Positions 57,176 to 63,821 of a DNA stretch of 64,000 nucleotides are shown here, piece after piece. The DNA comes from a virus. The translations under genes and the position numbers were made by a program. How positions within the stretch are numbered: the first letter of the stretch is position 1; every line of letters starts with the position of its first letter. The notes under the pieces were generated by a model. It had not been told where the DNA came from. It saw only the letters and a list, made by a program, of their open reading frames with translations, and searched no databases. Location: the IMG/VR virus record IMGVR_UViG_3300045988_073563; one strand, given 5' to 3'.

Positions 57176-57194
57176 AATATAATAATGTTAGTTT

Positions 57195-57317
57195 GAGTCC
57201 ATGAGAAGATTCGAACTTCTAACTTAGGCATTTATTATCAGGCTCTACAGTCTGTTTATTATGATGCCAGAGGTCGTTGGAACCCCACTTTTTGTTTTGC
57301 CTATTAAACTACATGAA
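57195..57317 (-). tRNA. Second non-canonical tRNA-like gene (~123 nt)
   Basis: The acceptor pairs 57196-57202 (gtccatg) with 57311-57317 (catgaac): 7 bp including one G-U. A perfect T-arm at 57203-57219 (agaag attcgaa cttct) has a loop that reads TTCGAAT on the - strand. TA at positions 8-9 is followed by a D-arm-like GTTT-AATAGGC-AAAC. An internal hairpin ggggt-tccaacg-acctc is also present. Confidence 0.45.
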
Positions 57318-60279: not shown

Positions 60280-60927
60280 TTATTGTTGTTCGATGTTAAT
60301 GTTAAGGTTTACTTCCTCGCTGTTCTGCGGTTCTACACCACACTGGCGAGCATACTCAATCTGCATACGTTCCTGCTCTTCCTGCATGCTCCGAACAGTA
60401 CCACTAAGTTTAGTATACTTACGAGCAAGCTCTTCATAGAACGTGCATACACTTGTGTTATGAAGTGCTAGCAATTCATTGAGTGTTGGTAGTTCTTCAG
60501 CTGAGAAGAATACTGGCTTACCACCTTTCTTTCCAATCCGGCTAATACAATCAGCGATTGTATCACGAGTTGCCTTAGCAAGTTGGGGCGGAACAAGGTT
60601 AAATACCAAATTCGGATCGTTACTTTCCGGATTCAGCATGATCTTTGGTTCACCGTCAAAATCTTTCGGTAAGAACTTCAAACCGGTAATGTCGATAGGT
60701 TTAATCAAGAACACAGTTACTTCTTTCCGTAACGTATTCTTATCGTTAAGTACGTCTTCTTTGTACTTAAGATCCGGATTTGTACCTACGATAGTATAGA
60801 TCTGTTCTGAGAAGAAACGACCATACTGTTTTGCTACAGCCCGGTAACGAGCAAGAATCTGAGAAGCAATATTAGCTTCAGGATTTGTCTGAGCACCATT
60901 TGTGCTAGCAGTTACTTGTACTTCCAT
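60280..60927 (-). CDS. Hypothetical protein
   Basis: The track ORF starts at TTG 60966. I prefer the first ATG at 60925-60927 (MEVQVTAS...). The stop is TAA. Confidence 0.45.
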   Translation of the reverse strand: MEVQVTASTNGAQTNPEANIASQILARYRAVAKQYGRFFSEQIYTIVGTNPDLKYKEDVLNDKNTLRKEVTVFLIKPIDITGLKFLPKDFDGEPKIMLNPESNDPNLVFNLVPPQLAKATRDTIADCISRIGKKGGKPVFFSAEELPTLNELLALHNTSVCTFYEELARKYTKLSGTVRSMQEEQERMQIEYARQCGVEPQNSEEVNLNINIEQQ

Positions 60928-60966
60928 AAAAATGTTTCCTTTCTGAGTCCGTACTTGATATACCAA

Positions 60967-63004
60967 TACGAACCATTTTTATACTCTTAGTTAATAATTA
61001 ATTTTAAGCTCTCCACCTTTCGATTATTTAATAGCACTACAGTAATGGTAGTGGTGAATTCAATCACATAATCTACTCAGCATAAAAAATAATAAATGTT
61101 AATTTATTTGAAAATATCTGATAATGATAAGATCTCTGATAATTTTCTGTTAAATATCGTTTTAACGTCCCGTTTCGACGGTTAAGATTCAACTCCTTCG
61201 ATGCTTAACGCACCTCTCACCGTTATTTCATATCGCGATTAGTTGCAATATGAAAGACTTTATCATCAGTTCACGATGAACCTACTTAGTATTTCCGGAT
61301 TTATCGAAATTCATTGAATTACGGTCGTTTATCTAACGTTACCAACTCACAAGCTCATTACATATAGTATGACCCACTTGTACCTCTCGGATTTCTTATT
61401 TATACTGCACGAACACGAGGATTTCCACCTCTCATCGTCTCCTTGCTTGCTTAGCTGCTATTGCTACTAAGTGTACTCTCCCTTAAATCTACCGAGACAG
61501 GGTGATAGGAGGCAGGTCATTGACGAATCAGCGTTCTCTTTACATATATACTTGCGGTATATACTTTATGAGTTTCTAATGTCAGCGATAACGGTTGGCA
61601 GTCTGGGGTGACTCGTACTCCATGCGGTCTATCTTACAACTGATAATTTGCTACTTCTGTACTATCATTGAACTTCCCAATTTCATATATCAGGTTATCA
61701 GCCTAATACGAGATTAAACAATTGAAAACACATTTTACCATTAGCTGGTTTTCTTCAGCTTTTACTGTTTCAGATTAAGAATATGTCTGTCATCACATCT
61801 ATATTCACTACCTTCTGGTTGTAGGATTCCAACCCTACAGCAGCTGTATTCTTACTTTAGTAAACTTAGTTTAAAGTACTTCTACTATATAGTTATTACT
61901 TCTCTTCAACTCAGGAGTGAGGCGATGCTTGTAATTAACCAGTCTTTACATATCTTGAAAGACATAAGCTCTGCTGTTTTTTAGTAGGAGTCCCTAGCGT
62001 CTCCTTAAAATCATTTTATATCATAATCATACTTGCTAAAGGTATGTGATAACTAGAATCAGGGTTATCGCGCCCTCAAACCGCTTAGACACTCTGGGTC
62101 TATTCATTCCTCATTCAATTATACTCACACGAACGAATAAGCACGTGAGTCACCTTAGACTTGAAAGACGGTATCAATCTCATATACCTCATCCCTTATA
62201 CGTAAGTTCTTTTTCGGCACGCTAGTTACGGTAGCGCACAGGATTGGCTCCTGCTCCCTGGTAATCAGTCTATTTTCACCACAGTTTAGCATGGTTACTT
62301 AGGATCATTGCATGTCCAGCCTTCATATCCTTACTTTGTATAAGTATGTACCATAACACGGTTATCCTTACATTAGTATTAGTTATTTACTCCCTTTATA
62401 TTACGAACCAATTATCGTAAAAACACTAGAGTTAGCCTATTTTTCCAATCAGGACGCATAGTTACGCTTTTGTATGAAGCGAGGTTGGAACCCGCTTGTT
62501 GCGTTAGTCAGCCTTAATATTGTTCAACAATCCTTTTCCAAGGGATTGTTCAAGAACACTTTGTTCTTGTCTCAGCATCGTGTTTATATTCCTTTTTGAG
62601 TCACATCTTGATAGTGCATACGAATATAGGGATTTCGTTCCCTTTGAGCTGTTTGTAATTCAGTGTGTCTTCTCTTAAATTACGAGTCTTTAATTAATCA
62701 AATCACCAATCGGTTCTCATTATCATAATCTTATTTGAAGGTTGCTCACTCTCACCTCCTCTTACACAGGTTTCACGTGTGTAAGCTAACATCTTACCTT
62801 TTGTTATCTCAACTGTTTTAGCAGTATACATATTCTCAGATCATGTACTTTTCGGACCATGTGTAAATGAACACAAGCTTCCTGACACAGTGCGTATTGT
62901 CTTATTTTAGACACCGCATGCCTTCTGCCGGAGTGATTTACGCTACAGTTTTACTCCTCTCGAACTATGACATAATTTTAGTATTTATAAAGCGGCTATT
63001 GTCA
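60967..63004. other. About 2 kb with no ORF of 60 aa or more in any frame; hairpin-rich; candidate large non-coding RNA or regulatory region
   Basis: The ORF track is empty here. My translations of - strand sections hit all three stop codons. Perfect hairpins lie at 61820-61839, 62526-62550, 62551-62569 and 62761-62785. Confidence 0.4.
61114..61124 (-). promoter_or_regulatory. TTATCAGATAT motif, copy 3 (with TTATCAGAG at 61133-61142)
   Basis: Exact 11-mer in the AT-rich stretch upstream of the 60280 gene. Confidence 0.35.
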
Positions 63005-63430
63005 TTAACTTTTTTCCGCTGAGGATTTATCTTCTCCTGCATCTAATGTCTCTGGTTTTACTGAGAAAATTTTTCCAGATGATAGGTTGATGTTTGCAAC
63101 TACCTTCCCACCACGGCATATATCAACTATGCCATCAGTTACATCTCTACTACAGATGTAATCAATTGGATCCATTTTACCCGGATCAAAACCATCCAAG
63201 CATTTACATAGATACCCTACAGACGAACGTAGGTACTGCTCTAAGTATAAGGTATTATCTATACTTTGTTTCGTTTTAACTTCAAGAGTGTTACTTGATT
63301 CTCCTTGAATAATGAAATACTCAGTTTGAACTATGACTTGATTTAACTCACGTCTAGCATTCTTGAAGTTACGAATAATTCGAGATAATCTTATCATCGA
63401 ATTAAGTGTAGAAATATTCTTATTCTTCAT
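63005..63430 (-). CDS. Hypothetical protein
   Basis: Intact 141-aa ORF with a TAA stop. Confidence 0.45.
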   Translation of the reverse strand: MKNKNISTLNSMIRLSRIIRNFKNARRELNQVIVQTEYFIIQGESSNTLEVKTKQSIDNTLYLEQYLRSSVGYLCKCLDGFDPGKMDPIDYICSRDVTDGIVDICRGGKVVANINLSSGKIFSVKPETLDAGEDKSSAEKS

Positions 63431-63821
63431 TATTAGAATCTTTAGTAAAAGGAGAAAGTGGTTTTACATCCTCTGGTAGATTAGCTATGCTACTTACTTT
63501 TGGAAATCCTGTATTTACTTCTTTTACTTTAGTTCTCCACTTAACAACCGGTTTAACTTCACCTGTTGTTGTTACATTGACGACTGCGTCTGTTGTTCCT
63601 TTTATGGATACTTCCTGAGTGTTTACATCGACAGCGATATTAATTGTGTCGATACTCACAGACGATTTCTCTTTAATTTGAGGCTTTGTCATAGACATTA
63701 GCTCCAAATATGAGGGAATCACAGGCTGTGCCTGCACTTTTTCAGTTGTACCTATTAGATTCCAGCCAACAAAAATACTGGCAAGGAACACTACTAGAAC
63801 TGATAAAACTCTACTAGTCAT
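63420..63821 (-). CDS. Hypothetical protein with an N-terminal signal/TM segment
   Basis: The N-terminus reads MTSRVLSVLVVFLASIFVGWNLIG, followed by a T/V/K-rich region. Confidence 0.45.
   Translation of the reverse strand: MTSRVLSVLVVFLASIFVGWNLIGTTEKVQAQPVIPSYLELMSMTKPQIKEKSSVSIDTINIAVDVNTQEVSIKGTTDAVVNVTTTGEVKPVVKWRTKVKEVNTGFPKVSSIANLPEDVKPLSPFTKDSNNEE

Follow-up and report, generated by a model that had tools for sequence, protein, structure and literature searches.

To our knowledge, very few prokaryotic or phage RNAs longer than 500 nucleotides (nt) possess a conserved fold, ribosomal RNA (rRNA) aside. RNase P, group II introns, OLE, GOLLD (about 800 nt) and ROOL (about 580 nt) belong to this short list, and each of them is mechanistically unusual. 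GOLLD and ROOL are giant 'ornate' RNAs of bacteria and phages, with Rfam families of their own, that have been studied by cryo-electron microscopy (PMC12286853). Here we analysed a 64,000-nt stretch of viral DNA (IMG/VR record IMGVR_UViG_3300045988_073563, hereafter the window, to which all coordinates refer unless stated otherwise) that contains a gene-free interval of about 2 kb at 60967–63004. An initial annotation had listed a large structured non-coding RNA (ncRNA) of no known family among the candidates for this interval, and this proposal was supported by sequence conservation, missing coding periodicity, covariation and the lack of an Rfam match. We consider it probable, at roughly 0.65, that the interval is the gene for a very large (about 1.95–2.05 kb) structured ncRNA that is core and syntenic in Suoliviridae, a family of crAss-like phages.

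The longest open reading frame (ORF) overlapping 60967–63004 comprised 59 amino acids (aa) and was located at 62046–62225 on the plus strand. None of 60 aa or more was found in the six frames, in agreement with the initial annotation. All three stop codons were frequent in each of the six frames; the minus-strand frames contained 27–32 TAA, 7–13 TAG and 19–23 TGA codons each (46–60 when TAA and TGA are added). The longest open stretch measured 79 codons in the standard code and 96, 117 or 175 codons when TAG, TGA or TAA, respectively, was read as sense, which upheld the earlier remark that stops are frequent and that recoding of a single codon does not rescue a gene. Neither single nor double stop reassignments opened a long ORF. 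A recent pseudogene, or a protein-coding gene concealed by recoding, by frameshifts or by errors of assembly, might nevertheless be suspected, as TAG is a sense codon in the late genes of this phage: in the late-gene block (1–46000, plus strand), 10,843 codons fell into ORFs of at least 300 with TAG as sense, compared to 2,943 with the standard code. Within the interval, however, the 96-codon stretch obtained with TAG as sense lies on the wrong strand and TAA and TGA close every minus-strand frame many times over. Substitutions furthermore show no codon periodicity, the frames are closed in 132 assemblies and conservation exceeds that of the real neighbouring genes, rendering a hidden gene or pseudogene practically negligible as an explanation. 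ATG 60927 is the most probable start of the downstream gene, in place of the mechanical ORF start TTG 60966, judging from the length of its relatives (210–215 aa) and from a conserved AAGGAA located 9 nt before the ATG. With this start, the non-coding interval would span 60928–63004, i.e., 2,077 nt.

The window represents a crAss-like phage of the family Suoliviridae ('delta' group), subfamily Loutivirinae. Nucleotide identity of the interval amounted to 80.7% with cr60_1 (99% of the query covered), 83% with cr109_1, cr113_1 and cr56_1, 76% with cr52_1, 74% with cr53_1 and, in patches, 77% with cr4_1. All seven relatives contain an unannotated gap of about 2.1 kb flanked by the same two small orthologous genes. 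In IMG/VR and RefSeq, 132 distinct full-length copies of 2,025–2,225 nt were found, and an exact invariant 18-mer (62347–62364) was present in at least 119 IMG/VR contigs. A syntenic gap of 1.85–2.5 kb occurred in all five subfamilies sampled (Loutivirinae, Bearivirinae, Uncouvirinae, Boorivirinae and Oafivirinae), always between a block of sigma factor, small gene, ~470-aa gene and ~130-aa gene and a block reaching from a ~190-aa gene to the DNA polymerase. The genomes outside Loutivirinae were cr6_1 (Bearivirinae), cr114_1 and cr118_1 (Uncouvirinae), cr10_1, cr1_1 and cr55_1 (Boorivirinae), and cr7_1 and cr272_1 (Oafivirinae). An nhmmer profile built from Loutivirinae matched six of these eight gaps, covering all four other subfamilies, in two collinear blocks (E-values 5e-25 to 1e-5; blocks A and B in Table 1). 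The gaps of cr10_1 (L209, 2582–4657) and cr118_1 (L210, 2545–4464) gave no match to this profile; their sequence, of the same size and in the same place, is either highly diverged or replaced.

Conservation of the interval surpassed that of its neighbours. Between the window and cr60_1, the gap displayed 81% DNA identity, while the flanking proteins shared 45% and 68% of their amino acids. Variability per column was 0.29 in the gap versus 0.47–0.74 in the short sampled ends of the flanking genes, and third-position periodicity of variability was absent, with a phase ratio of 1.08–1.39 in every 300-nt window. The closed frames were common to 132 independent assemblies and to all subfamilies sampled. 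The interval is not protein-coding, and its nucleotide sequence is under purifying selection stronger than that acting on the neighbouring genes. Both this selection and the presence of the gap in every subfamily sampled speak against a decayed acquisition, which had been considered earlier. The inspection of relatives for conservation or for protein-coding homologues, as proposed at that stage, led to the same result: the interval is better conserved than the genes on either side and closed in all 132 copies. RefSeq lists three short hypothetical coding sequences within the RNA region (L002 4279–4716, cr109_1 gp34; L212 3350–3832, cr7_1 gp52; L208 3790–3951, cr114_1 gp096). Two of the three lie on the opposite strand and they are not kept as ORFs among relatives; they are probably spurious. 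A scan of bacterial genomes with the pattern GGTGGAADTCCN{5,7}TTCGTGC was too unspecific to establish absence from hosts: among at least 120 matches listed, one was a true homologue by nhmmer, namely a phage-like full-length copy in a contig of a metagenome-assembled genome (L313).

A consensus fold was computed with RNAalifold from 34 sequences that were less than 98% identical to each other. It comprised 430 pairs in 96 helices. Standard pairs were formed in 94.4% of the alignment cells, compared to 85.4% after column shuffling and 36–41% after sliding of the partners. Changes on both sides affected 179 of the 430 pairs (shuffled 123.7±4.2, slid 37–62) and 1,356 cells (shuffled 447, slid 102–198), and the covariation score reached 0.283 (shuffled 0.135, slid 0.05–0.07); for all four measures, none of 500 shuffles scored as high. 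The covariation that the initial annotation had suggested looking for among relatives was thus found. Because the consensus fold had been derived from the alignment used for scoring, we conducted a clade cross-validation, in which the 24 sequences most similar to the window supplied a fold that was then scored in 44 more distant ones (65–74% identity). In the distant clade, 168 of 522 pairs were compensated (slid 73–89, permuted at most 80), with 2,472 doubly changed cells versus 700–1,000 for slid partners. Across subfamilies, entire stems were exchanged under fixed loops (for example, GUAUAUAC-CGCAA-GUAUAUAU versus CUAAUAUG-CGCAA-CAUAUUAG; hairpin 61564–61544). Hairpin loops invariant in all 34 sequences included AACGAAAU, GGUAC, UAUGAGAUUGA, UUAGCA and GUGGAAAUC. 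Many invariant loops sat above covarying stems, several loops were GNRA-like, and insertions and deletions were confined mostly to a few variable stretches. In about 90 helices, pairing is preserved through compensatory base changes, and many of the hairpin loops are invariant. The four perfect stems noticed at the outset are all present and individually compensated, three of them as given in Table 1 and the fourth (61841-34/61825-18) at four of seven pairs.

With helices defined by Watson–Crick compensation alone, G-U accounted for 8.5% and A-C for 1.2% of cells on the minus strand, while the plus-strand prediction gave 5.1% G-U versus 2.2% A-C. These values modestly favour a minus-strand RNA. 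They also bear on the assumption that the interval acts at the DNA level, as a replication origin or packaging signal with hairpins extruded from single-stranded or supercoiled DNA. Such an element would be in keeping with the position inside the replication gene block and with an A+T-rich patch carrying a short direct repeat at 61150–61090, but about 90 helices over 2 kb and the far better tolerance of G-U than of A-C argue otherwise. Furthermore, the interval contains neither iterons nor tandem repeats, the cumulative GC skew has no turning point here, and G+C content is above rather than below that of most neighbours, so that we regard a DNA-level element as very unlikely. The only internal repeats or modules were short chance matches. 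Regarding composition, the impression that the interval is less A+T-rich than its surroundings held for most neighbouring sequence (G+C 0.37 versus 0.31–0.36) and failed for the adjoining downstream gene (0.39–0.43), i.e., it was partly right because the latter is equally G+C-rich. The described pyrimidine richness of the plus strand was recovered: GC and AT skew are both negative on this strand, as in the flanking minus-strand genes, and the minus strand carries all neighbouring genes. The A+T-rich patch lies in the 3′ part of the interval (minus strand), and its repeat reads ATTATCAGA (AUUAUCAGAGAUCUU / AUUAUCAGAUAUUUU); a role in regulation or processing, or as an internal promoter driving the downstream gene, is conceivable for this patch. 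The conserved TAAATACTAWAATTAT, located upstream of the RNA and taken as a repeated promoter motif, was matched no more often than by chance, and a scan for sigma-70 promoters and terminators was uninformative.

We then compared the interval with known RNA families. At gathering score, Rfam 15 returned no match in the window or in seven relatives, and at E ≤ 10 the region 60500–63500 produced only chance matches far below threshold (mir-1322, saliva-tongue-1, sR46). The covariance models of GOLLD, ROOL, OLE, raiA and HEARO did not match at either level. Neither ARAGORN nor Rfam models detected transfer RNA (tRNA), transfer-messenger RNA, RNase P, 6S RNA or rRNA. The comparison with GOLLD, ROOL and introns that had been recommended at the outset consequently identified no family. 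Full-text literature searches and key crAss papers likewise yielded no description of the element; the latter included Yutin et al. 2021 (PMC7886860) and the 2023 Crassvirales review (PMC10136315). Group I introns are known in core genes of delta-group crAss-like phages (PMC7886860), and the interval contains many GNRA-type loops, which could be taken to indicate one or more ORF-less self-splicing introns, or another mobile ribozyme, between two gene halves. However, the models Intron_gpI, Intron_gpII, D1–D4 and those of small ribozymes gave no match even at E ≤ 10. The upstream gene terminates at its own stop codon, the downstream gene possesses its own conserved leader and ATG, and the two encode different protein families. 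Moreover, the element occupies one fixed site in every genome examined instead of being patchily distributed. The earlier suggestion of a ribozyme or intron-like RNA therefore did not hold, and we judge it highly improbable. In cr53_1 (L004), an HNH endonuclease gene interrupts the DNA polymerase, which fits the group I introns reported for delta-group core genes (PMC7886860).

Two observations concern tRNA. ARAGORN found no tRNA inside any gap in the window and 12 related loci, nor anywhere else in the 64-kb window; although late genes are open solely with TAG as sense, no suppressor tRNA was detected either. A T-arm-like sequence, AGAAGTTCGAATCTTCT, is located at ~57176–57220 on the minus strand, directly ahead of the start of the DNA polymerase gene (57175), and relatives carry a tRNA gene at this place (tRNA-Val in cr1_1, tRNA-His in cr53_1). 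As ARAGORN and Rfam call no tRNA there, AGAAGTTCGAATCTTCT may be a decayed or non-canonical tRNA, and the site may correspond to what the initial annotation called a tRNA-like locus. The loop motif GTTGGAA(Y)CC, which had been linked to that locus, was indeed present at 61825–61834 and 62480–62490; the proposed link was not supported.

The features of the locus are compiled in Table 1.

Table 1 Predicted parts of the putative RNA and its adjoining genes (window coordinates)
Feature	Coordinates	Strand	Support or remark
Upstream gene (up), 141 aa	63005..63430	-	Always directly 5′ of the RNA in Loutivirinae
Hairpin AGCGG/CCGCU over the stop codon of the upstream gene, followed by UUUAUAAAU	62991..63020	-	3/5 pairs compensated, 97.6% of cells paired
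Whole non-coding interval, structured RNA locus	60928..63004 (2,077 nt)	-	From the stop of the 141-aa upstream gene to the probable ATG of the downstream gene
RNA body within predicted 10-bp long-range closing helix (62970-62960 with 61023-61013)	61013..62970	-	92.9% paired, moderate support
Block A, cross-subfamily 5′ core: GAUCUGAGAAUAUGU, CAAAAGGUA, UGAGAACCG, GGAACGAAAUCC hairpin, UAAACACGAUG	62573..62870	-	nhmmer
Hairpin CUUACACA/UGUGUAAG (62785-62778/62768-61)	62761..62785	-	6/8 pairs compensated
Motif copy A: outer stem UAUUC/GGAAUA around CGUAU, 4-bp hairpin with AUCAA loop, ACUCAAAAAGG	62587..62626	-	Covariance model
Two adjoining hairpins, 62569-63/62557-51 and 62550-40/62535-26 (GGAA loop in the second)	62526..62569	-	4/7 and 7/10 pairs compensated
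18-nt run UAACCGUGUUAUGGUACA	62347..62364	-	Invariant in 11-genome comparison; its CGUGUU predicted to pair with AACACG 62584-62579
Domain closed by CUUAUAC/GUAUAAG (62344-62338 with 62201-62195)	62195..62344	-	5/7 closing pairs compensated, 99.5% paired
Variable region with lineage-specific insertions and deletions	61700..61960	-	Conservation down to 0.45-0.6
Block B, cross-subfamily 3′ core: GCCAACCG, hairpin 61564-61544 (CGCAA loop), ACGCUGA, hairpin GGUGGAAAUCC 61431-61417, UUCGUGCAGUAUAAA	61220..61800	-	nhmmer
Two 3′ hairpins: GUGA-UUGAAU-UCAC (invariant) and CACUAC/GUAGUG	61035..61067	-	Consensus fold; 5/6 pairs compensated in the second
Motif copy B in the 5′ untranslated region of the downstream gene, two-stem like copy A	60936..60973	-	AAGGAA 9 nt before ATG 60927, within the outer stem
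Downstream gene (dn), 215 aa	60280..60927	-	Always adjoins the RNA

The hairpin over the stop codon of the upstream gene occurs in the variants AGCGG/CCGCU, UACGG/CCGUA and AGUGG/CCACU and probably marks the 5′ boundary as a terminator or processing hairpin. Block A was matched in cr6, cr55, cr1, cr272, cr7 and cr114 (E 5e-25 to 1e-12), with stems compensated across subfamilies, and block B in the same genomes (E 2e-21 to 1e-5). Hairpins of the domain between them carry the conserved loops AGCCAAU and CCGUAAC. The predicted CGUGUU/AACACG helix was paired in 99.4% of cells and nearly invariant, so that covariation speaks neither for nor against it; other predicted long-range helices were invariant and equally uninformative, whereas helix 62085-83/61592-90 contained two compensated pairs (13 versus 13 and 21 versus 13 sequences). 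In the variable region, the hairpin 61841–61818 (loop GUUGGAAU) was missing from 12 of 68 sequences and its loop was not conserved. A kissing interaction between the loops UUCCAAC (62490-84) and GUUGGAA (61833-27), perfectly complementary in the RNA strand of the window, was rejected because most relatives contain UCCAAAA and UUAGAAU instead, and some lack the second hairpin. Likewise, a motif resembling an 11-nt tetraloop receptor (UAUGG/CCUAAG) was dropped, as CCUAAG is not conserved. The segment GUUCGAGAGGAG looks sarcin–ricin-like by eye, a likeness that was set aside because the segment is predicted to lie inside the closing helix.

One part of block A recurs outside the RNA. A covariance model of copy A, built solely from 78 nt of the Loutivirinae block A, detected a second site in the leader of the downstream gene dn in six genomes (best E 8.5e-4). 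The 40-nt motif consists of an outer stem strand (YYC with GGR), CGU-AU, a 4-bp hairpin with an AUCAA loop and [A/C]UCA-R-R-AAGG, which forms the other strand of the outer stem. On both strands of the 64-kb window, the composite pattern matched solely 62612–62591 and 60959–60938, both on the minus strand, compared to an estimated ~0.02 matches by chance, and the remaining genes of the block lack an AAGGAA-type leader sequence. Both copies were found in cr6_1, cr1_1/cr55_1 and cr114_1, and copy B also in cr7_1 and cr272_1, upstream of the dn orthologue. Lineage-specific variants were shared by the two copies (CUCA in the window, AUCAAG or AUCAAA in cr6 and cr1, AUCAC in cr114). When both copies were pooled, all 13 motif pairs were compensated and 93.2% of cells were paired versus 69.2% after shuffling (0 of 500 as high). 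As in operator mimicry, the leader of a nearby gene carries an identically folded repeat of a site in the large RNA, and this leader copy overlaps the ribosome-binding region. The shared fold points to a common binding factor, and by analogy one factor most likely recognises both copies; translation of dn would in that case be tied to the large RNA.

Orthologues of dn, joined by a chain of phmmer searches, were present in all five subfamilies. The dn protein had no Pfam or PHROG match, and a PDB profile search returned nothing. Of two AlphaFold2 models, the first was poor and the second acceptable (predicted local distance difference test, pLDDT, 55.5 and 75.5); a Foldseek search of the latter against the PDB gave no match (best E 1.1). 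The protein of the upstream gene had no Pfam, PHROG or PDB match.

Taken together, a minus-strand RNA would be transcribed with or just after the early or middle genes of the replication block. It would form one molecule, with the long-range helix joining its two ends. The folded molecule would serve as a scaffold and make contact with proteins or further RNA through its invariant loops, much like GOLLD and ROOL or a small rRNA-like particle, and a factor binding both the RNA motif and the dn leader would couple dn translation to the amount of free RNA. Several points weigh against this picture. We infer transcription, strand, ends and the unity of the molecule from sequence. The energy of single-sequence folding was no better than that of shuffles (z = −1.1 and −1.3), i.e., it is covariation, not stability, that shows the stems to be beyond chance. 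The scoring of the consensus fold on its own alignment is answered by the clade cross-validation only in part. Pairs common to both strand predictions gave 2.2% G-U versus 1.4% A-C, which makes the symmetric strand test a weak one. As for the coupling, the dn protein is acidic (isoelectric point 4.9–6.0) and no RNA-binding fold was recognisable in it. The closing helix contains a single true compensatory pair: four of its pairs change from U-G to C-G and one from C-G to U-A.

The latter point leads to the question of whether the interval could instead hold several independent smaller RNAs and cis-regulatory leaders, such as two or three small RNAs and a long 5′ untranslated region of dn. The best-supported helices are mostly local hairpins, which again disfavours a single molecule, and long-range helices show little covariation (helices 3, 9, 26, 56 and 72). 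The variable stretch 61960–61700 parts two blocks, each of which is matched on its own in the other subfamilies, and copy B is clearly part of the messenger RNA leader of dn. On the other hand, no internal promoter- or terminator-like signal stands out on the minus strand, the total length is kept at 1.85–2.5 kb in all subfamilies, and the closing helix accepts wobble-compatible changes only. The two compensated pairs of helix 62085-83/61592-90 and the five of the helix with a range of 140 nt also join distant parts. We hold a set of smaller RNAs to be a real, though rather unlikely, alternative and prefer a single large ncRNA. More tentatively, and less likely than not, this single RNA of about 2 kb might fold compactly into a particle, by itself or together with the products of its fast-evolving neighbour genes. 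It would then be the largest non-ribosomal structured RNA or ribonucleoprotein known from a bacterial virus, with a partner gene regulated by an rRNA-style operator mimic, made during infection for a purpose such as take-over of translation or replication, or anti-defence.

Suoliviridae are one of the most abundant phage families in the human gut. With its length of about 2 kb and well over a hundred covarying pairs, the putative RNA would be encoded by a core gene of delta-group crAss-like phages, in an interval that genome annotations leave blank or fill with spurious ORFs. If this reading is correct, few structured RNAs other than those of the ribosome match it in size, and it constitutes a tractable target for RNA structural biology, for which a deep natural alignment is ready. 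It would also imply that infection by crAss-like phages involves an RNA-based step that has gone unrecognised, and the duplicated operator-like motif would offer an experimental handle on the partners of the RNA.

Among known systems, lambda nut and HK022 put resemble the locus in that a short structured RNA motif occurs twice in the same direction of transcription. However, these sites measure 30–70 nt and cannot explain 2 kb of conserved structure, and there was no evidence of a terminator downstream of the motif copies. OLE RNA, raiA and HEARO/omega RNA are likewise long, structured and conserved ncRNAs, probably with protein partners encoded nearby. The present RNA differs from them by its much larger size, a different host range, the lack of a model match and the lack of an IscB/TnpB-type or OLE-associated gene in its vicinity. 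The ribosomal-protein leaders of L1, S8, L20 and S15 are autoregulatory operators that mimic the proteins' own sites on rRNA. In a similar way, the translation start region of the adjoining gene is overlain here by a second, identically folded copy of a motif from the large RNA, the predicted 5′–3′ long-range helix recalls the processing stems of rRNA, and length variation is concentrated in few stretches. The analogy, on which binding and regulation at this locus would rest, is limited by the absence of rRNA homology and by an adjoining protein that is acidic and has no known RNA-binding fold. GOLLD and ROOL share with this RNA that they are very large, encoded by phages or prophages, intricately folded with the support of covariation and equipped with GNRA-type and invariant loops. 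They form multimeric cages. They are found beside tRNA clusters, whereas the putative RNA described here occupies a fixed position in the core genome of a crAss-like phage family. It is also about 2.5–3.5 times longer than either and matches neither covariance model. We assign the putative RNA to the giant ornate kind, as one that belongs to no known family and is far larger than GOLLD and ROOL.

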